From: Escherichia coli
GTDB taxonomy: Bacteria > Pseudomonadota > Gammaproteobacteria > Enterobacterales > Enterobacteriaceae
NCBI RefSeq assembly: GCF_003991155.1
Contig: NZ_CP031295.1
DNA: 64,000 nucleotides
Direction: 5' to 3' (one strand)
Program-made: the position numbers and the translations under genes
The notes under the pieces: model-generated
Databases searched by the model: none
What the model was told of the DNA's origin: nothing
The model's input: the letters and a program-made list of their open reading frames with translations, nothing else
In this document: positions 17,621 to 25,868 of the stretch, one piece after another
Numbering within the stretch: the first letter of the stretch is position 1
Layout of the letters: each line of letters starts with the position of its first letter

Positions 17621-18238
17621 TTACCGTTCAGTTTTTTCGGTTGACGCGGACTGTTCCTGCATGGTTTTCATCTTTAGCTTCTGTTGTTCCCTTACTGCCA
17701 GCCAGCGTCTGGCATTCAGCGCATCGCATTCTGATACCTGACCTGCTGGTAGTCCATCCAGTCCATAACGAGGGATACCTGCGACAGCAGTACGCTGCAG
17801 ATATACCTGTCGGGTGGTGATGCAGGATATTGCACAGGACCATTCATCCAGTGTCAGTTCTGTCTCAGGGTGTTCTGTCAGGAATGCGGCAAAATCATTG
17901 GTTATGCCAATTTTCAGTGGAAGAAATCCTCCGCCTTCTGCGCGAAGATGGGGAAACAGAGACTTCACTTTTTCCACGCAATCGTGAGTAAATTCATGAG
18001 TCCAATGAGGCTGGCGTGGAAAACGGCGTCTTTTCTTTTTTTTCTTACAGGCAGGAGCATCAGGGGTATGAGTATCGACGGCAGGCGAACTGATCCCCTC
18101 AGAGACTGATTCTTCCATCTTTTCTGTCTCTGAACGTGCGATAACACCTGTTTTTTCAGATAAGGAAGGGGGTAAAAGAGTGCGACGTTTTTTCACCATA
18201 ATGATGGGTGTTTTCTTTTCTTCCTGATATTTCCCCAT
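17621..18238 (-). CDS. ProQ/FinO-domain RNA-binding protein
   Basis: Lys/Arg-rich tract (KKKKKRRR) followed by FLPLKIGITNDFAAFL...RYGLDG, resembling ProQ/FinO domain. Confidence 0.45.
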   Translation of the reverse strand: MGKYQEEKKTPIIMVKKRRTLLPPSLSEKTGVIARSETEKMEESVSEGISSPAVDTHTPDAPACKKKKKRRRFPRQPHWTHEFTHDCVEKVKSLFPHLRAEGGGFLPLKIGITNDFAAFLTEHPETELTLDEWSCAISCITTRQVYLQRTAVAGIPRYGLDGLPAGQVSECDALNARRWLAVREQQKLKMKTMQEQSASTEKTER

Positions 18239-18525
18239 AAAAACCTCTACGATGTGTTCTTATATAATAATATATATCATATTTTCACGATTAACATAAT
18301 ATCTTCGTTAAGAAAACAACAGAGCAAAATTTGTTTTTTTTTGACAGGCATGAAATGAGCCAGCATAATTATATTAATTATTATCCCAAATGAGTTTTTG
18401 TATTTGCTCATTCGGGATGGTTGGATATTTTAAGTTATATCTACTGTATCATTCTCAGGTAATCGTTCCATTAAATCAGAAACTACGGGCTGTAACCAGT
18501 CAGTGACTTCACTCACATACTGATG

Positions 18526-19992
18526 TCATTCGGGATGCCTGGAGGCCAGATCCATCACTCGTGTTAACCCGGACGGACGATCAATGCCCAATTTAGTTAA
18601 AATATTCGAGATATAATTATGAGCATCAAGTTCAACTCTGATATCCCTTGCTGCTTCGATTATTTCTAAATATTCGCCACCCAATCCGTCCAGTGGGACA
18701 TTTGTAATAAGATAATGAATGTATTGTTCAGGCTTAACCCCATTTGGGAGATTAAATTGTTTTACTTTTCCTTCCGCTGCCGCTTTTAACTCATAAGTTC
18801 GTGATTCTGTGCCGGTGAAAACTTTATCACGAGCAGTTTTCTTTTCATTTTCTGTGGAATATTTATCGCCATCAAGAATATAAAGTTTACCAGATAGATT
18901 GTCACCACGAATAAGGGTACTGGCAAGTAGAGTGAATGCGTTTGAAGCTGCGCCAAATTTAAATATTTTTACATATTTGCTGGCCTTAAGTGAAGAACAT
19001 ATTTTATTTATTATGGCAACAGCTAAGTCATCTTCTACATATATTTCAATAGGCGTCGTTGATTCACCTGTTAATCTGTTTATAGCATCAGGTTTTGTTT
19101 CTTCAAATGAATAACTACGGCCTTGAATGTTTACGACGTGTCTTATATTTATCTTGTCTGATAAAGTGGTTATCATTTCTCTATGGGTAGTAAAGATGAT
19201 TTGTTTGTTTTTATCTTTGGCATGAGATGATATGACTTCTATTAACTTTTTCAATGCTTCGTCATGCAACAATAAATCTAATTCATCAATTAATATTAAG
19301 GCGTTCTTGTCCGCTTTCAATATTGTTTCCAGAATTAAAAATATCTTTTGCTCTCCTGCGCTCATACTCAATGATGAGTAGGCCAGTCCCCCTGACTCAA
19401 CTCCAATCAATATTTTTCCATTGGGTTGTTGATGCTGATTGAAACTTGTGTATGGTTTATTAAGTATATAGGAGGCGTAATGAAGAATGTTTGTTATTAA
19501 ATCATTACTGACACTGCTGGTTTCATACTGAATATTATTCTTTTTTTCTGATTCTATTATAGGAACACATTTATCAATGCCAAGATAGTAAACTTCTCTT
19601 AAAGGACGACGAGCATAAATCTGAATCCATCGTGAGCCTCGAATATCTGCTTTTCCATAATTTTTCAATTCATTTTCAATCATTACCCCATCTTTACGAT
19701 AAGTTAAATTTACAATGAAGTCACTGCCGTTCCATTCAGCATGTGGGCTGCGTGGAAAAAAATGCATTAACCGATGGTCTTCACCGGGGAAACCTTCTTC
19801 AGGCATGTATATGCTTGCTATAGCATGGAGTATTGTTGATTTTCCGCTTCCATTTGGACCTAAAATTGCGGTTAACGCATGAGGTTTAAAAATAATCTCG
19901 TTTAATCCATTTATACATTTTAGTTTGTTAATTTTAATGGAGTTCAAGACTTGACCAGTAATGGTTTTTTTATTTTTTTCTGCCATTTTCAA
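18526..19992 (-). CDS. OLD-family ABC ATPase-TOPRIM nuclease (defence-associated), apparently solo
   Basis: Walker A GPNGSGKST, signature/Walker B LSMSAGEQK...ILIDELDLLLHDE, H-loop FTTH; C-terminal TOPRIM-like IEIYVEDD and YILDGDKY; AT-rich. Confidence 0.55.
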   Translation of the reverse strand: MKMAEKNKKTITGQVLNSIKINKLKCINGLNEIIFKPHALTAILGPNGSGKSTILHAIASIYMPEEGFPGEDHRLMHFFPRSPHAEWNGSDFIVNLTYRKDGVMIENELKNYGKADIRGSRWIQIYARRPLREVYYLGIDKCVPIIESEKKNNIQYETSSVSNDLITNILHYASYILNKPYTSFNQHQQPNGKILIGVESGGLAYSSLSMSAGEQKIFLILETILKADKNALILIDELDLLLHDEALKKLIEVISSHAKDKNKQIIFTTHREMITTLSDKINIRHVVNIQGRSYSFEETKPDAINRLTGESTTPIEIYVEDDLAVAIINKICSSLKASKYVKIFKFGAASNAFTLLASTLIRGDNLSGKLYILDGDKYSTENEKKTARDKVFTGTESRTYELKAAAEGKVKQFNLPNGVKPEQYIHYLITNVPLDGLGGEYLEIIEAARDIRVELDAHNYISNILTKLGIDRPSGLTRVMDLASRHPE

Positions 19993-20248
19993 ATCCTAGC
20001 ATTATGTTGGGGGGATTCACCATGTAATTCAGAAACATATAACTGTGAACAGGGGATATATCAAATCCTTTTAATATTCTATTTGGCACAGTATTCTACA
20101 TCAGGCCTCTTTTATGCTACAGACTTTTTGAGATGTCTGTAATTTTAGACTTAATGTTATGACTGATCATATCTCCTATCCACTGGTGGCGCAGGAAAGT
20201 TAACCAGCTGCCACCATGGGATGATGTGTAAACCGTGCTGGTATGTTT

Positions 20249-20839
20249 TTACGGGGTGACGCTTTCATTAACCTGTACACGAACCTCCATTCCGGCATCG
20301 TGACAGGCCTGCAGCCACTGCGCCACTTCCAGCGGATCGCCCTCCAGGCGTACCACCCTGCCTTCTTTATTCCATAACTGCAGACAGGTGCTGCCGTCGA
20401 GACGTACCACAAAATCCCCACGGCAGGCCTGATACGTTATGCCGTTCAGCTGCACCGCCAGATCAGTGGCAGAAGTGCCGTCTGCGGGCAGACCTGCTGC
20501 CGGGACCAGCGGCAGTACGACGACTTCTGCCGCACGCTGTTCTGCCCGGAGGCGGTCCTGTTCTGCCAGCAGCAGAGGCTGTGCCACGGCCCGGCCGGCG
20601 TCCGTCAGCTCGACAGCCAGCTGCAGATTCGGGGCGCGCAGGGTACGCAGCCAGCCGGCATCCTCCAGACGACGGCAGGAGGCGCGCAGGTTTGGCCCGT
20701 AGACCGGGGCTTCCCCGCTTCGCTCCAGCACCCGTTCCAGGTCCCGCGTCAGCACGGGGCCCGGCCGTTTTTCATCAAGCGCAGCCAGCACAATCAGCAC
20801 TCTCCGCTGCAGTGGCGACGGTCGGCGGCTCTGGGTCAT
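20249..20839 (-). CDS. hypothetical protein, GC-rich, possible winged-helix N-terminus
   Basis: 196-aa ORF, GC-rich codon usage distinct from neighbours; translationally coupled to upstream 85-aa ORF. Confidence 0.4.
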   Translation of the reverse strand: MTQSRRPSPLQRRVLIVLAALDEKRPGPVLTRDLERVLERSGEAPVYGPNLRASCRRLEDAGWLRTLRAPNLQLAVELTDAGRAVAQPLLLAEQDRLRAEQRAAEVVVLPLVPAAGLPADGTSATDLAVQLNGITYQACRGDFVVRLDGSTCLQLWNKEGRVVRLEGDPLEVAQWLQACHDAGMEVRVQVNESVTP

Positions 20840-21096
20840 TACCTGTCATCCTCCGGCCAGATGAGGTTTCTGAGGCGCTGAAAGTCGGCGTCAATGAGCT
20901 CCTGTCTCTTTATGGCATTCATTGAGGCATAGCCATTTATGGCCAGTTCATGCCAGAAGATCAGCACGGCTCCGGCTTTGGCTGACTCGCAGAGATAAAT
21001 CGCGCCCTGGCTGTCCAGATTGCATTCCCGGATGCGTTTTTCCGCAAACCGGGTCAGTTGTTCATAGCTGAGTGAAAACACCCTTTCTTCATCCAT
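20839..21096 (-). CDS. hypothetical small protein (85 aa)
   Basis: ORF whose stop overlaps start of 20249-20839 gene. Confidence 0.35.
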   Translation of the reverse strand: MDEERVFSLSYEQLTRFAEKRIRECNLDSQGAIYLCESAKAGAVLIFWHELAINGYASMNAIKRQELIDADFQRLRNLIWPEDDR

Positions 21097-21449
21097 CCTG
21101 CACGCTCCATCTGATAATGTACTGACAGGTAAAAATAATATCCTGCATGATTTGTGTGCTCATGATTTCTGATAATATCAGATATTGTTTTATCATCAAT
21201 GATGAAAACCATATCTGATATGATTTTATATATATTTCTTAATTATCATATCATTTGCGTCTTTTCTGCCGCGCAGATCCAGTTTCCGGCTAAGTCGGAT
21301 CGACCTAATCTTTGTTTCTGATATGAACACCTCGGAGAGGTGTAAGCAATGGTATAAACGAAATGTATTATGTATCTGCATCACAGCATGCGGGCACATT
21401 TTGCGGAAGGATATGAATCCCCCCGGAATAACTGGCAAAGGACAGATAA

Positions 21450-23588
21450 ATGGACATTGAAATACGCCACTGCAATAACATCGTACGAGCACATATCACC
21501 CTCACTGCCGATAAACTGAACATTAAGTTTGCGCCAAATGGTACTGGAAAAAGTACGCTGTCACGGGCCATAAGCTGTGCGGCGCGGGACGACATTCAGG
21601 GACTACAGGCACTGATGCCCTTCCGGCTGCGCGGAGAAAACCCCGATAGCACCGGGCCCATTGTCATCGGTGCTGACGGGATTGGGGACGTGATGTGCTT
21701 CAACGAGGAGTACGTCAGTCAGTTTACGTTCCAACCGGACGAGCTCATCAGTGATAGCTTTAATATTCTTATCCGCAATCAAGCCCATGCGGAAAGAGAG
21801 CGTGAAATAGAAGAAATGACGCAAAAGATCCGGGCTGTTTTCACGGATCACACTGAGCTGAACTCTCTGATAGACCATCTACAGGAACTCAGTAATGCTT
21901 TCAGATCAACCAGTTCCGGGATTTCACGTTCTTCAACCGGCATGAGAGGTCTGTCAGGCGGAAATAAAATACACCACATTCCGGCTGGTCTTGAGAACTA
22001 TCAACCCTACATCCGCAGTGAACGCCGCGTGGAATGGATTGACTGGCAGACAAAGGGACTCGAGTTTTCGCCCCTTTCGGATGGCTGCTGTCCGTTCTGT
22101 ACCGGTGATATCACGGGAAAGGAAGCACAAATTCGCCAAGTCAGAGAGGAATACGATAAATCCACCATTAAAAACCTGACCGCTATCATCAGACTGGTGG
22201 AAAACCTCGGTAATTACCTGACGGAGAGCGCCAGAGAACGCCTTCTGGCCATTACTATGCTTCAGAACGGTCCGGAAGCCGAACATATCGAGTACCTAGT
22301 GGCGTTGAAACGCCAGACCGATACGCTGACAGAGAAACTCACTGCGCTGAGAGGCCTGAATGTTTTCAGCCTGCAGGAACAGCAGAACGTTCGGGAGGTG
22401 CTCACTGCCAGGTTGATTGACCTGCAGTTCTTCCCTGATCTGCAATCCGAACTCATGCAGGGGATCACCGACAGACTGAACGCGGCCCTTATGGACCTGA
22501 TAAACCTTGCCGGACCGCTGCAGGGAAAAATTAACCGGCACCGGGACAGCATGATCCGGCTGATCGCACAGCACAAAACAAACATCAATAATTTCCTCAC
22601 TTATGCAGGCTATAAATACAGGGTGGATATAGCCGGCGAGGGAGAGCAGAGAAAACTCAGGCTACGACACATAGATTTTGACGGGTACGTCAGCGGCGGT
22701 AGCCAGCATCTCAGCTATGGAGAACGGAACGCCTTTGCGATTGTGTTATTCATGTATGAATGCCTGTCAAAAAACCCGGGACTGATTATCCTTGATGATC
22801 CCATATCTTCTTTTGATAAAAACAAGAAGTTTGCCATTCTTGAAATGCTGTTCAGACGTGCAAGTGGTGAATGCCTGAAGAACCGGACTGTACTTATGCT
22901 GACGCATGACGTGGAGCCTGTGATTGACACGCTGAAGTCAGTCAGAAGGTTGTTCAGTAATCAGGTGACCGCCTCCTGCCTGCGCCTGTCTGCTGGAGTC
23001 ATAGAAGAATTACCTGTTAACGACGGCGATATCATGACATTCATGCAGATCTGCAAATCCATCACCGCGTCAGCAGACTGTGAGGAGATCATTAAGCTCA
23101 TCTATCTTCGTCGCTACTTTGAAATCGTTGACGAACGTGGTGATGCTTATCAGCTTCTATCCAATCTATTCCATCGACGCGTCGTCCCGCTGGATTATCG
23201 CGAGCCTGCCGCTGCGGGCTCGGGCTATCCCAAAATGGCTCCTGAGAAAATTCAGCAGGCCTTGCGGGATATCCGGGAGTATGTGGACAGTTTTGATTAC
23301 CCGCGACTTCAGGCTCTCGTCAGCAGCCCAGATGAAATAAAAAACCTGTACCGTCGCTGTCGTAACGGCTATGAAAAACTGCAGGTATTCCGTTTACTGG
23401 AACTGGATCAGGACCATCCGGTAATACGAAAATTCGTTAACGAAACGTACCACATTGAAAATGAGTTCATCTGTCAACTAGATCCGTCCAGATTCGATCT
23501 CATCCCGGAGTACGTGATTATGGAATGTGACAAGCTCATCGCCCTGCCACCGGCAGCAAACCAGAGCTCGGTTGCCCGTATCGCTTGA
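21450..23588 (+). CDS. SMC/Rad50-like ABC ATPase with CxxC hook and C-terminal effector-like domain (RloC/PrrC-like candidate)
   Basis: Walker A APNGTGKST (aa~30); CCPFC (aa~223) in predicted coiled-coil insert; signature LSYGERNAF, Walker B LIILDDP, H-loop LMLTHD (aa~440-495); approx 210-aa C-terminal domain. Confidence 0.5.
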   Translation: MDIEIRHCNNIVRAHITLTADKLNIKFAPNGTGKSTLSRAISCAARDDIQGLQALMPFRLRGENPDSTGPIVIGADGIGDVMCFNEEYVSQFTFQPDELISDSFNILIRNQAHAEREREIEEMTQKIRAVFTDHTELNSLIDHLQELSNAFRSTSSGISRSSTGMRGLSGGNKIHHIPAGLENYQPYIRSERRVEWIDWQTKGLEFSPLSDGCCPFCTGDITGKEAQIRQVREEYDKSTIKNLTAIIRLVENLGNYLTESARERLLAITMLQNGPEAEHIEYLVALKRQTDTLTEKLTALRGLNVFSLQEQQNVREVLTARLIDLQFFPDLQSELMQGITDRLNAALMDLINLAGPLQGKINRHRDSMIRLIAQHKTNINNFLTYAGYKYRVDIAGEGEQRKLRLRHIDFDGYVSGGSQHLSYGERNAFAIVLFMYECLSKNPGLIILDDPISSFDKNKKFAILEMLFRRASGECLKNRTVLMLTHDVEPVIDTLKSVRRLFSNQVTASCLRLSAGVIEELPVNDGDIMTFMQICKSITASADCEEIIKLIYLRRYFEIVDERGDAYQLLSNLFHRRVVPLDYREPAAAGSGYPKMAPEKIQQALRDIREYVDSFDYPRLQALVSSPDEIKNLYRRCRNGYEKLQVFRLLELDQDHPVIRKFVNETYHIENEFICQLDPSRFDLIPEYVIMECDKLIALPPAANQSSVARIA

Positions 23589-23749
23589 GCCACTGTTTTT
23601 GCCGCCGGAAGATAGGCTTTAGCTCCCTGATAGTCTGATCTTCGAAGATACCCTACAGTTTAGGACCGCTTACTGTAGATATCTGTTAAAACAGCCCGTA
23701 TACGGGCTGTTTCTTGGTGCCCTTATCTCCTGACTTTGAAAAGAGTGTC

Positions 23750-24166
23750 TTACTTCACCCAGTCTTCCAGCACCAGGTCAGGCACTCGCTCAAATTCTCT
23801 TGTATTATTCGTTACCAGTATCGCCCCGGCGGCGATGGCGTGCCCGGCAATCGCCGTGTCGTTCGGGCCGATCGGCGTCCCGGCCAGCCGCAGTGCCACT
23901 TTAATCTTCGTGGTGGCGTCTACTGCGGCGCGATCCCAGGGCAGGATGGCATCGAGGCGGGCGCAGAATTCATCGACCAGTTGGACGTGACGTGGTGAGG
24001 CCTTTGGGCCGGTAGCCCCGAAGCGCATTTCAGAGTAGGTGATGGCCGAGACCACTATACGGTGGCCGCGTAGCACCGCCTGCTCCAGACGCTTCAGGAC
24101 GGCTTCTGGCTGTTCACGCATGATGAACGAGCAGATACAGGTATCAAGCATATAAGTCTTGTTCAC
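23750..24166 (-). CDS. vapC: VapC PIN-domain toxin
   Basis: 138 aa MLDTCICSFIMREQP...; PIN-domain acidic residues; overlaps vapB stop. Confidence 0.85.
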   Translation of the reverse strand: MNKTYMLDTCICSFIMREQPEAVLKRLEQAVLRGHRIVVSAITYSEMRFGATGPKASPRHVQLVDEFCARLDAILPWDRAAVDATTKIKVALRLAGTPIGPNDTAIAGHAIAAGAILVTNNTREFERVPDLVLEDWVK

Positions 24167-24393
24167 AGGTTAAATCGCCCTTCGTCGCTGACAACATCCT
24201 CGCGCTCCGCCATAAAATCTGGATCGGCTTTTTCGTACTCTAGGAATGATCCCCAGGTTGGCCGGACGGGGCGCAGGATGATGCTGTCCCCTTCCCGGAC
24301 GATCTCGAGCTCGCTCACCCCCTCAAAATCCAGATCACGAGGCAGACGGATGGCGCGGTTGTTGCCATTTTTGAATATCGATACGGTTCTCAT
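24163..24393 (-). CDS. vapB: VapB antitoxin (AbrB/SpoVT-type)
   Basis: 76 aa MRTVSIFKNGNNRAIRLPRDL...; 4-nt overlap with vapC. Confidence 0.85.
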   Translation of the reverse strand: MRTVSIFKNGNNRAIRLPRDLDFEGVSELEIVREGDSIILRPVRPTWGSFLEYEKADPDFMAEREDVVSDEGRFNL

Positions 24394-24407
24394 GTTTTTT
24401 CTCTCCC

Positions 24408-24540
24408 GAGCATATGGATATGTGAAACATATCCGGAATATTCAAAGCACCGGGTGTGTGCATATGTTTAGTATAGGCAGATGTGTGGCATATGTATAGC
24501 GGTAGCATATGTAGATGCCAGGCATATGTTTAGCATATCT
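24408..24540. promoter_or_regulatory. array of about six GCATATGT repeats upstream of vapB (putative vapBC operator)
   Basis: Repeated CATATG-core motifs spaced about 15-25 bp immediately upstream of vapB start. Confidence 0.4.
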
Positions 24541-24688
24541 CTATTTCTTTCTTTTTTATCGGAGATCCGAAAAAAGGTTAAGTCTGATCTTAATGAAATT
24601 ACATGGAATTTGAGTGATATCCCTTACCCCACATCTCCAACGTGCTATCTATAAAGGTTGATACATCTCACTTAGTCCGGAGGTTGTT

Positions 24689-24979
24689 ATGAGCGTCAAA
24701 ATCACAGGTTTAGACAAAATGCAGAAACAGCTAAAAGAGGTTGAGAGAGCAACAGAGGCATTAAACGGAAGTTATGATGTCCACTTCGATGCTAACGATC
24801 CTGTCAGCATTGAGAACGCGATTCAGGAAGCCTATTCCATGGTGTACGAACGCGCTTCTGGTTATGCCACTAATCCGATGGTCAGCCCATTAATCGAACA
24901 CATGAAAGAAAATCTGCGCCAACAGATTCTGGACAGAGCAGAACAACAAAGACAGGAGAGCGGGCAGGATGGCAATTGA
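24689..24979 (+). CDS. hypothetical small protein (96 aa), first gene of TIR-like cassette
   Basis: ORF with RBS-like GGAGG upstream; 11-nt overlap with next gene. Confidence 0.45.
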   Translation: MSVKITGLDKMQKQLKEVERATEALNGSYDVHFDANDPVSIENAIQEAYSMVYERASGYATNPMVSPLIEHMKENLRQQILDRAEQQRQESGQDGN

Positions 24980-25868
24980 TATCTTTCAGTCACTTAAAAA
25001 TTGCGTATTCGACCTTCAGCGCGCTGACGTTCAGAACTATCAGCAACCTCTTAAGCAATTGGCCCGGCTCTTGAACTCAGAGAATCTGCAGTCAGTTAAT
25101 GCACATCTGACCCGCAATGTTGAACTTGATACCTTTCTGGCCAGGAGTGAAGATACTGAATCCAGCATGGCTGGTTCCGCTGTTCTACAGTGGCCTGATG
25201 AGCCCGCTGATATTTTGGGCCTGAAGTTGCTGCTGATCGAGAAAATGGCAGACGATAACAATTTTTCCTTTAATTTCTGTCATACATTTTTCTATGATCG
25301 AAACATTATTGAATCCATTCGAAAATTCACGTCGTCATTAGTTGCCCCGTTCGTGCGCGATTACCAGTTGTATGTGGAAAACCAACACGATCCTGAGCCT
25401 GCAGTGTTTCGGCCGGTTTCCCGAAAAATTTTTATTGTTCATGGCCATGATAATGATGCCCTTCAGTCTGTTGCCCGTTTTATATCCCGGATAGGTCTTG
25501 AGGAAATCATTCTTTCAGAACGTCCTGACGGCTCCAGGACGATTATCGAGAAATTTGAAGCAGAGTCAGGGGATGTCAGTTTTGCCATCGTGCTGATGAC
25601 GCCCGACGATAGCGGCAGTGCTCTGGCATCTGAAAGCACACGTCTCCGCGCACGCCAGAATGTCCTGTATGAGCTCGGATATTTCGCCGGGAAGCTTGGA
25701 CGCGGGAAAGTACTTGTACTCAGGAAGGGAGATATCGAAATCCCTTCAGATCTTGCCGGGGTTCTCTATACCGAGCTTGATGAGCATGGTGGATGGAAAC
25801 GCAAACTGCTGAGTGAGCTTGCGTATGCCGGTGTTCCTTTTGACAAGGATAAAGCATTAAGCGCCTGA
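24969..25868 (+). CDS. TIR-like-domain protein (PF10137-type C-terminus) with unknown N-terminal domain
   Basis: C-terminal motifs KIFIVHGHD, AIVLMTPDD, RARQNVLYELGYFAGKLGRGKV, EIPSDLAGV typical of predicted nucleotide-binding TIR-like proteins. Confidence 0.55.
   Translation: MAIDIFQSLKNCVFDLQRADVQNYQQPLKQLARLLNSENLQSVNAHLTRNVELDTFLARSEDTESSMAGSAVLQWPDEPADILGLKLLLIEKMADDNNFSFNFCHTFFYDRNIIESIRKFTSSLVAPFVRDYQLYVENQHDPEPAVFRPVSRKIFIVHGHDNDALQSVARFISRIGLEEIILSERPDGSRTIIEKFEAESGDVSFAIVLMTPDDSGSALASESTRLRARQNVLYELGYFAGKLGRGKVLVLRKGDIEIPSDLAGVLYTELDEHGGWKRKLLSELAYAGVPFDKDKALSA

Follow-up and report, generated by a model that had tools for sequence, protein, structure and literature searches.

A divergent RloC-like ABC ATPase carried by IncI1 plasmids, a candidate anti-phage protein with a remodelled C-terminal domain

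A gene in the variable 'Delta' region of IncI1 plasmids, examined here in a window of 64,000 nucleotides from Escherichia coli contig NZ_CP031295.1, probably encodes a self-contained anti-phage protein: a plasmid-borne and divergent representative of the ABC ATPase-nuclease fusions that make up the RloC lineage, with a remodelled nuclease domain, acting by abortive infection (rough probability 0.55). The evidence comes from profile homology to RloC across the ATPase head, the zinc-hook-type insert and the first helix of the C-terminal domain, and from the position of the gene among phage-exclusion genes.

The gene and the architecture of its product

The gene is the sole long open reading frame in its stretch of the ORF list. 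Searching with the 3.5 kb from position 21000 to 24500 gave 100% identity with the IncI1 plasmid R64 (NC_005014, 35223-38723), where the gene occupies 35673-37811 and its product is WP_000350638.1; in the sources this protein is labelled just 'AAA family ATPase', and the name RloC is absent from them. A homology search at E<=1e-5 yields 3643 proteins, with about 55% identity across phyla, so neither the reading frame nor its motifs can be attributed to chance. The conservation counts given below are taken from an alignment of 89 diverse family members (A2). Because homologues keep the N-terminus, MDIEI...CNNI, from residue 1, the ATG start is considered correct. The features are as follows.

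21097..21449, no strand assigned: divergent intergenic/promoter region with promoter-like sites, shared with the ydfA-ydeA-ibfA operon
21438-21442, plus strand: Shine-Dalgarno AAGGA, read from the sequence, with the ATG 7 nt downstream
21450..23588, plus strand: complete gene, ATG start, 712 codons plus stop, 712-aa product
21450..21764, plus strand: N-terminal lobe of the ABC ATPase head, residues 1-105 (Pfam, conservation, AF2, Foldseek, hhalign); it contains the Q-loop candidate Q91
21531-21557, plus strand: Walker A APNGTGKST, residues 28-36, with K34 invariant
21765..22616, plus strand: helical insert splitting the head, residues 106-389 (AF2, conservation, alignment to the RloC insert)
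22089..22100, plus strand: CPFC (C214-P215-F216-C217), zinc-hook-type CxxC (conservation, hhalign)
22617..23039, plus strand: C-terminal lobe of the head, residues 390-530 (Pfam, conservation, AF2, hhalign), closed by beta-strands at residues 506-530 (AF2)
22710-22724, plus strand: signature LSYGE, residues 421-425
22782-22817, plus strand: Walker B/D-loop LIILDDPISSFD, residues 445-456
22905-22907, plus strand: H-loop, H486
23040..23585, plus strand: all-alpha C-terminal domain, residues 531-712 (AF2), candidate nuclease effector
23094..23123, plus strand: helix KLIYLRRYFE, residues 549-558 (conservation, RloC/PrrC alignment)
23172..23414, plus strand: family-specific segment, about residues 575-655, boundaries inferred, not in RloC/PrrC
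23430..23462, plus strand: motif KFVNETYHIEN, residues 661-671, candidate counterpart of the RloC/PrrC His motif

The upstream region, which faces an operon described previously (PMC12111858), holds five copies of TCTGATAW, the palindrome TCTGATAATATCAGA among them, and we infer a regulatory role for the region.

We found that the head is a Rad50/SMC-type ABC ATPase split by the helical insert. Both lobes match Pfam AAA_13, the match ending at residue 489; K34, D449, D450 and H486 are invariant among the 89 sequences; and the Foldseek neighbours of the AF2 head are the heads of SMC, Rad50, RecN and SbcC (E 1e-7 to 1e-5). An earlier note, made by eye from this stretch, had described an N-terminal Walker A followed after about 400 aa by the signature motif, and 387 aa indeed lie between the two; its placing of the signature, Walker B and H-loop near residues 440-495 was essentially right, the true span being 421-486.

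In the AF2 model the insert has two stalk helices of about 40-50 residues each (111-150 and 334-386), and between them lies a conserved cap comprising STGMKGLSGGNKI, W196 and W199. The cap is compact and helical, with CPFC in the loop between helices 193-209 and 225-256. C214 is present in 89/89 and C217 in 88/89 sequences. The CCPFC that the earlier note had pointed out between the ATPase halves is there at residues 213-217, CPFC being its conserved part and the first cysteine, C213, being unconserved. As for the Rad50-type layout proposed in the same note, the split head with a CxxC stands, while the single long coiled coil does not appear in the modelled insert; an absence of coiled coil around the CxxC, named beforehand as counting against the reading, did not occur. 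Of C8, C83 and H176, considered as partners in an intramolecular zinc site, C83 and H176 were rejected as unconserved in the deep alignment; C8, kept in 85/89, stays a candidate.

About 220 aa follow the H-loop. An additional C-terminal domain of about 210 aa had been predicted; a conserved all-alpha domain is found (residues 531 to about 705 in the AF2 model), although the strands at 506-530 still belong to the head. Only R554 and H668 are invariant in this domain, and R555, E558, S571, K643, R648, K661, E665, E670, N671 and Q676 are each kept in at least 81/89 sequences. In the first helix, R554 (89/89) is followed by E558 (83/89, with D in a further 5); H575, separated from E558 by 16 residues, is H in 65/89 and K in 24/89. 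The family-specific segment of about 70 residues carries a conserved YEKLQxFR (K643 86/89, R648 87/89), and the motif around H668 (89/89) retains K661 (87/89), E670 (82/89) and N671 (87/89). An acidic cluster, ExxHxENE, surrounds H668.

Sequence searches of Pfam, NCBIfam and the PDB with the C-terminal domain gave no match, and none to a function outside defence, which had been set in advance as evidence against a defence role. Foldseek against AFDB50 returned family members alone among the best 50 listed. A search of 1.84 billion representatives gave 432 matches, the best 150 of which place the domain at the same position in proteins of about 700 aa or are short fragments; among these 150 there is no evidence for a mobile domain.

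Relationship to RloC, PrrC and other ABC ATPase systems

RloC is a wobble nucleotide-excising, zinc-responsive anticodon nuclease (Davidov & Kaufmann 2008, PMC2610378), which cleaves the tRNA anticodon loop, excises the wobble nucleotide and is regulated by Zn and by a DNA-dependent ATPase (PMC2610378, PMC3458546). Our reference was the P2-prophage protein of APEC O1, WP_000423308.1, with its family of 37 sequences (A6). This is a genuine RloC set: its homologues are named 'wobble nucleotide-excising tRNase', the protein matches the PADLOC PrrC model via its nuclease domain, and in a control hhalign comparison with PrrC the whole nuclease domain aligned (Prob 98.5%).

The resemblance to RloC suggested in the earlier note is borne out by profile comparison. 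A2 aligned with A6 at Prob 99.7% (E 2.5e-26) over 521 columns, covering residues 1-559 and pairing Walker A, signature, Walker B and H-loop. C214/C217 are paired with RloC C254/C257 in a common W...G...CPFC motif, and this profile alignment shows the CPFC of the insert to be homologous to the RloC zinc hook. R554/E558 line up, without offset, with RloC R646/E650, the counterparts of PrrC R320/E324; on the same alignment evidence, the C-terminal domain is shown to open with the catalytic Arg-x3-Glu helix of RloC and PrrC. Further likenesses to RloC are a single chain of about 700 aa, an ABC head interrupted by a helical insert that bears a hook motif, the Arg-x3-Glu helix about 100 residues past Walker B, and occurrence alone, in defence islands and sometimes embedded in R-M loci (PMC2610378).

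Significant alignment to A6 ends at residue 559. With the C-terminal domain alone, hhalign against RloC gave P 0.06-0.18, not significant, although KFINETYH was repeatedly paired with RYINRGSH; removing residues 580-650 produced one alignment covering both motifs (P 0.065, again not significant), and relaxed-gap runs chaining the two motifs gave inconsistent alignments. A rival pairing of RloC MRNILEY with ALR606DIRE610Y was rejected because R606 and E610 are unconserved. The published RloC triad is Rx3E-x36-52-(S)H, with Ser usual before the His (PMC2610378). The distance from Glu to the invariant His, H668, is 101-122 residues in the present family as against 28-53 in RloC, so H668 is too distant for the published position, and it is preceded by Tyr/Phe. 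Thus, of the RloC/PrrC catalytic residues whose alignment had been proposed as a check, R554/E558 align and the His is not at the RloC-defined place. The family also differs from RloC in its shorter insert (about 285 aa, against about 385 aa in the APEC protein), in Lys for Arg and Tyr/Phe for Ser relative to the RloC motif [R]-x-I-N-x2-S-H, and in its extra YEKLQxFR segment and ExxHxENE cluster. The description 'RloC-like' holds; identity as an RloC anticodon nuclease is unproven.

PrrC, the E. coli tRNA-Lys anticodon nuclease, likewise joins an ABC ATPase to a C-terminal effector, and it has LRxxxE and then [RK]-x-I-N-x3-H in the same order; KFINETYH resembles PrrC RIINFTSH as well as RloC RYINRGSH, the alignment being not significant. 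Comparison of the C-terminal domain with PrrC by BLASTP, and by hhalign against two PrrC alignments, brought up ATPase motifs alone: hhalign aligned only Walker A or the stretch from Walker B to the H-loop, and the C-terminal domain itself scored Prob <1%. The match to the PADLOC PrrC model is restricted to residues 421-473 (E 3.5e-4), and Pfam AAA_13 reaches H356 in PrrC, whereas it stops at residue 489 in the R64 protein. PrrC is about 396 aa long and has no helical/hook insert, against 712 aa with a 285-aa insert here. PrrC is embedded in a type I R-M (hsd) locus, which silences it, and the ten homologues that we fetched all have hsdS on one side and hsdR/M on the other; neither in the window nor in R64 does an hsd gene adjoin the present gene. 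Membership of PrrC was therefore rejected for want of C-domain homology, the compact form and hsd flanks.

HEPN proteins have an all-alpha core of four helices. Their motif is Rx4-6H, in which the Arg is followed by a polar residue, and a conserved acidic residue lies upstream (PMC3710099). K661-x6-H668 has a compatible spacing and an upstream acidic residue, E558, and differs in having Lys (87/89) for Arg, followed by Phe. A nuclease effector is the probable role of the C-terminal domain.

Among catalogued defence candidates, the PADLOC PDC-S06 model PDLC04889 matches residues 1-698 (model positions 1-688 of 693, E 4.8e-286), so the protein already figures in that catalogue as a candidate single-gene defence. 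The bin PDC-S06 is heterogeneous: PDLC04886, 04890, 04894, 04896, 04897 and others match an RloC-family protein at full length, and among the models checked PDLC04889 alone recognises the C-terminal domain of the R64 protein. In the literature we found neither validation nor a mechanism for PDC-S06. The combination of an ABC ATPase sensor with a nuclease effector, predicted here, also recalls IbfA, PARIS (AriA-AriB) and the OLD family, but those have a TOPRIM effector and no CxxC hook insert, against an all-alpha domain here, and the likeness is confined to ATPase motifs; PARIS is reported to degrade tRNA. Rad50, SbcC and SMC share the head fold and a split head with CxxC; in contrast to these, the insert is far shorter, with no long antiparallel coiled coil in the AF2 model, and the extra C-terminal domain is one that Rad50 and SbcC lack.

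Genomic setting and distribution

The gene lies outside the maintenance or leading region, between the phage-exclusion genes ibfA and pifA, with vapBC and a TIR-like PDC-S35 candidate adjoining. On the same plasmid, ibfA is 1.5 kb away and has been validated as anti-phage (PMC12111858). No partner gene was conserved across nine genomic contexts, in agreement with the 'solo' gene of the earlier note. As candidate partners, ydfA/ydeA were rejected because they are part of the ibfA operon, and vapBC because its association is not conserved elsewhere. One distant homologue (L016) sits inside a type I R-M locus, another (L013) is fused to a methylase/ResIII operon, L015 adjoins AbiU2/ParE and L018 adjoins nSTAND3; further homologues are lone cassettes on the chromosomes of many phyla.

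The gene is present in 813 of 5426 complete E. coli genomes (about 15%), where 766 of its 863 places are plasmid-borne, and in 926 PLSDB plasmids. Copies are frequently truncated or disrupted by IS elements, as is expected for accessory genes. A tblastn search of phage genomes gave no match; a PHROG match exists despite this. Literature searches on WP_000350638.1, yagA/ydgA, PDC-S06 and RloC on IncI1 found no functional study.

Proposed mechanism, alternatives and significance

We infer RNase activity and phage defence, and propose a mechanism by analogy with RloC and PrrC. In uninfected cells the ATPase/hook module would hold the C-terminal domain silent. A phage-induced cue, for which a phage protein, free DNA ends, DNA damage and the loss of restriction activity are candidates, would shift the head to another nucleotide and oligomeric state, and this change would unmask the domain. 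R554/R555/E558, K661 and H668/E670/N671, predicted to form a metal-independent HEPN-like RNase site, would then cut tRNA or another RNA of translation, so that translation would be arrested and the infection aborted. The insert of about 70 residues with YEKLQxFR, together with Lys for Arg before the His, suggests a substrate or cleavage mode unlike that of classical RloC. Tentatively, and with rather less than even probability, the domain may represent a novel form of nuclease active site that arose from the HEPN-like domain of RloC/PrrC, set apart by the 70-aa insert with YEKLQxFR, by Lys for Arg and by the ExxHxENE cluster. Its target may be a non-wobble one, which could be another tRNA site, rRNA, mRNA or even DNA, and the gene may be a major contributor to the broad phage interference of IncI1 'Delta' plasmids.

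The protein would be an orthodox RloC, with anticodon cleavage, wobble excision and regulation by zinc and DNA, if annotation had simply overlooked it; the same architecture, a size inside the published 658-897 aa (PMC2610378), the 99.7% profile homology and the common CPFC and Rx3E agree with this, yet the published Rx3E-x36-52-(S)H spacing is absent, no source uses the RloC name as is done for A6, and the domain fails the profile tests that readily join RloC to PrrC, which makes the reading improbable. Alternatively, the protein may belong to the RloC lineage and act in defence, but with a C-terminal domain exapted for something other than anticodon or HEPN RNase activity; the domain could be a metal-dependent DNase built on the acidic cluster H668-x-E670-N671-E/D672, or a sensor or adaptor, with growth arrest caused by another activity. 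We consider this unlikely but worth weighing, given that RloC/PrrC homology is undetectable past the Rx3E helix, that the domain has its own 70-aa insert with conserved K643/R648 and the acidic ExxHxENE around H668, that it is without a Pfam, NCBIfam or PDB sequence match, and that PDLC04889 alone among PDC-S06 models recognises it.

A role outside defence, as a Rad50/SbcC/RecN-like DNA-handling ATPase serving the plasmid in maintenance, recombination/repair or plasmid competition, would fit the SMC/Rad50/RecN/SbcC-like head, the predominance of plasmid-borne copies and the null result in phage genomes. It is rendered very unlikely by the company that the gene keeps: no Mre11/SbcD-type partner or kleisin occurs nearby in R64 or in the homologue contexts, homologues are single chromosomal cassettes of many phyla or lie in R-M operons and defence islands, the 'Delta' region with ibfA and pifA is not a maintenance or leading region, and copies are often truncated or IS-disrupted. 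We therefore favour an RloC-lineage anti-phage protein with a remodelled nuclease domain.

R64 and other IncI1 plasmids disseminate antibiotic resistance. It is also known that they change the phage types of Salmonella and blunt phage therapy, effects for which just ibfA and pifA have so far been blamed (PMC8004404, PMC12111858). The gene described here lies between these two and is annotated only as an 'AAA family ATPase'. If the variant reading is true, it would be a phage-interference gene of IncI1 'Delta' plasmids that has gone unrecognised although roughly 15% of complete E. coli genomes carry it. For the favoured RloC-lineage protein, profile homology to RloC provides a mechanism open to test, in which an ATPase/zinc-hook sensor gates the cutting of RNA, and precise residues for mutation. 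PADLOC PDC-S06 contains both orthodox RloC proteins and a separate sub-family in which the nuclease domain appears to have been rebuilt, and this sub-family could help to show how HEPN-like active sites evolve.

Architecture of the protein and its family

The gene is the sole long ORF at its place, and the surrounding 3.5 kb matches IncI1 plasmid R64 (NC_005014 35223-38723) at 100% identity; there the product is recorded as WP_000350638.1, named 'AAA family ATPase'. The following features were read from the sequence and its translation.

21450-23588, + strand: gene of 712 codons
7 nt upstream of the gene: AAGGA ribosome-binding site
Residues 28-36: Walker A, APNGTGKST
Residues 213-217: CCPFC
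Residues 421-425: signature, LSYGE
Residues 445-456: Walker B/D-loop, LIILDDPISSFD
H486: switch His

Translation confirmed the layout described in the earlier note (Walker A, CCPFC, signature/Walker B/H-loop and an extra C-terminal domain) with small offsets only; ~220 residues remain after H486. An AF2 model, built on an alignment of 89 diverse family members (28-63% identity) that is also the basis of our conservation counts, is confident (pLDDT 92.2, pTM 0.85). In this model the ATPase head is formed by residues 1 to ~105 and ~390-530; in the insert, stalk helices 111-150 and 334-386 surround a cap that is made up of shorter helices and conserved loops. CPFC lies in a loop between helices 193-209 and 225-256, and residues 531 to ~705 are all-alpha. 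Foldseek matched the model to the SMC, Rad50, RecN and SbcC heads in the PDB (E 4e-7 to 1e-5) and more weakly to AriA.

The protein belongs to a real, widespread family. There are 3643 matches among 5.8 billion proteins; the best 120 are all ~700 aa, 54-100% identical, and come from Proteobacteria, Desulfobulbaceae, Kiritimatiellae and Cyanobacteria. Invariant in all 89 aligned members are N24, K34, C214, F382, Y390, S422, N427, F434, D449, D450, P451, S454, D456, K459, H486, R554 and H668; P215 and C217 are each found in 88, and C8, W196, W199, R555, E558, S571, K643, R648, K661, E665, E670, N671 and Q676 each in at least 81. CCPFC reduces to CPFC as a family motif, since conservation does not extend to its first Cys. 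The C-terminal domain is family-specific: its 225 residues have 432 matches among 1.84 billion cluster representatives, and the best 150 place it at the same position in ~700-aa proteins or are short fragments. NCBI gives some of the partial members in the 90% cluster a wrong name, 'autotransporter outer membrane beta-barrel domain-containing protein'.

Pfam reports AAA_13 only, on the two ATPase lobes (residues 21-137 and 418-489), all NCBIfam ABC matches are sub-threshold, and the PHROGs entry, phrog_2801, is annotated as function unknown. PADLOC gives a full-length match (E 4.8e-286) to model PDLC04889 of PDC-S06, a candidate single-gene defence system. The searchable literature yielded no validation of it; in one preprint, a PDC-S06 AAA-ATPase also scores highly in ESM-DefenseFinder.

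Relationship to RloC and PrrC

The E. coli PrrC query was verified four ways: it has 396 aa, with K46, R320, E324 and H356 in agreement with the published numbering (PMC2610378), the PADLOC PrrC model matches it (E 2e-147), it shares 99.7% identity with a protein annotated as 'anticodon nuclease' and encoded next to hsdR on plasmid CP057689, and its homologues carry that name. Ten diverse plasmid homologues, every one between hsdS and hsdR/M, formed the PrrC alignment. For RloC, a HEPN survey (PMC3710099) gave the lead to the APEC O1 chromosome, where WP_000423308.1 (738 aa) lies in a P2-like prophage hotspot. This protein has CPFC, MRNILE and RYINRGSH, its C-domain matches the PADLOC PrrC model, it matches PDC-S06 model PDLC04886 (E 1e-254), and its homologues bear the RloC name 'wobble nucleotide-excising tRNase'; 37 sequences of its family were aligned.

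APEC O1 prophage locus, 6932-9148, - strand: orthodox RloC-family gene, gpA/portal hotspot

The tail-fibre/tail-sheath hotspot of the same prophage holds a Sll1717-family P-loop ATPase gene (24266-25852, - strand) adjoining an IS21 insertion.

The ATPase, the hook and the first catalytic helix of the 712-aa protein are homologous to those of RloC. Comparison of the two family alignments by hhalign (Prob 99.7%, E 2.5e-26, 521 columns) takes in Walker A, signature, Walker B, H-loop and the beta-hairpin after the head, pairs the hook regions (WIDWQTKG...CPFC with DWVKKG...CPFC) and ends at a helix in which KLIYLR554RYFE558 is paired with RloC NIMR646NILE650. A control hhalign of RloC against PrrC covers the whole nuclease domain (Prob 98.5%, E 1.6e-15) and equates RloC R646/E650/R683/N686/S689/H690 with PrrC R320/E324/R349/N352/S355/H356. 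Together these alignments match R554 and E558 to the Arg and Glu that mutagenesis showed to be essential in both anticodon nucleases (PMC2610378). We put the probability that the protein is homologous to RloC at about 0.95.

The alignment to catalytic residues proposed in the earlier note thus holds for R554/E558, but the His motif is paired only at non-significant P (0.06-0.18): in the best local C-domain alignment, K661-F-I-N664-E-T-Y-H668 falls repeatedly against RloC R683-Y-I-N686-R-G-S-H690. The pattern [RK]-x-I-N-x3-H is common to the family, RloC and PrrC, and at the sequence level what links the C-domain to RloC beyond the R554/E558 helix is only suggestive. Spacing from Glu to His is 101-122 residues in the family versus 28-53 in RloC and 31-35 in PrrC, which indicates a family-specific insert of ~70 residues; it holds a near-invariant YEKLQxFR. 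The C-domain had no match to PrrC or to the C-terminal part of AAA_13, a Pfam model that covers PrrC up to H356. Compared with RloC, the domain has gained the insert, carries Lys instead of Arg and has acidic residues clustered about the His; so remodelled, the protein falls outside the published triad definition and does not qualify as an orthodox RloC.

Distribution and genomic neighbourhood

Of 5426 complete E. coli genomes, 813 carry the gene, at 766 places on plasmids and 97 on chromosomes; it is also on 926 PLSDB plasmids and was found in no phage genome. pAPEC-O1-ColBM, a plasmid of the RloC-bearing APEC O1 strain, carries it at 99.7% identity (H93). IS21, IS600 or ISVsa5 interrupts or truncates it in several plasmids, such as O26 plasmids (H1, H35, H36, H106, H116), which shows that it has been lost repeatedly. 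No conserved partner gene was found across nine contexts, the window and eight others.

E. coli: integrase island
L013: methylase-ResIII operon, 4-nt overlap
L016 1517-12724, Kiritimatiellae MAG: type I hsdM-hsdS-X-hsdR locus
L015: beside AbiU2 and ParE
L018: beside nSTAND3
L014, L017, L019: lone insertions

These mirror the mixed solo and R-M-linked contexts of RloC, for which R-M linkage was reported in 8 of 72 genes (PMC2610378). The type I locus also holds Bro-N, DUF2188 and SLFN_AlbA_2 genes and is a composite restriction-linked island, reminiscent of Campylobacter rlo loci.

Within the window, an operon runs divergently from the gene, which is followed by vapBC, a PDC-S35 candidate gene and the gene for the T7 exclusion protein PifA (PADLOC E 3e-290).

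17621-21096, - strand: ydfA-ydeA-ibfA-proQ/FinO operon
21168-21182: palindrome TCTGATAATATCAGA, among TCTGATAW copies
24689-24979, + strand: 96-aa ORF of unknown function, overlapping and preceding the PDC-S35 gene
24969-25868, + strand: TIR/Cap12-like PDC-S35 gene, 299 aa
28145-29236, - strand: 363-aa ORF, 62% GC, directly upstream of pifA and co-oriented with it

These surroundings form a defence island, which belongs to the variable 'Delta' region of IncI1 plasmids. IbfA is an ABC-TOPRIM protein (PADLOC HEC-04) with demonstrated abortive action against infection by P22-like phages, and R64 ibfA is reported to inhibit BF23; the GC content of ibfA (34-38%, versus ~50% for its neighbours) indicates separate acquisition. 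The island may include a second uncharacterised defence candidate in the PDC-S35 product, whose residues ~189-273 form a TIR/Cap12-like NADase region. The 363-aa ORF, which has no PADLOC or NCBIfam match and is absent from the PLSDB gene table of R64, could by its position be a pifC-like regulator. TCTGATAW occurs 17 times in the window (3.4 expected by chance), with five copies in the divergent intergenic region (21097-21449) and three further copies grouped at 60931-61325; some regulator probably uses these as operator sites. The GC mosaic of the window (59-66% at 5-12 kb, 33-40% at 18-20 and 33-37 kb, ~50% elsewhere) is consistent with a plasmid variable region built from many sources; in R64, arsenic-resistance genes are found upstream.

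Putative function

The gene is likely to be a defence gene. By analogy with RloC and PrrC, its product would act against phage through activation of a C-terminal RNase; that the effector is an RNase using R554, E558 and H668 is an evenly balanced proposition, and its substrate, even its chemistry, could differ from that of RloC. ABC-nuclease abortive-infection proteins of the RloC/PrrC type, and this gene as a PADLOC candidate, were known already. The explicit homology link between the family and RloC is new, and so is the recognition that the family is a distinct sub-family, one whose nuclease domain has been rebuilt and which is very common on enterobacterial resistance plasmids.
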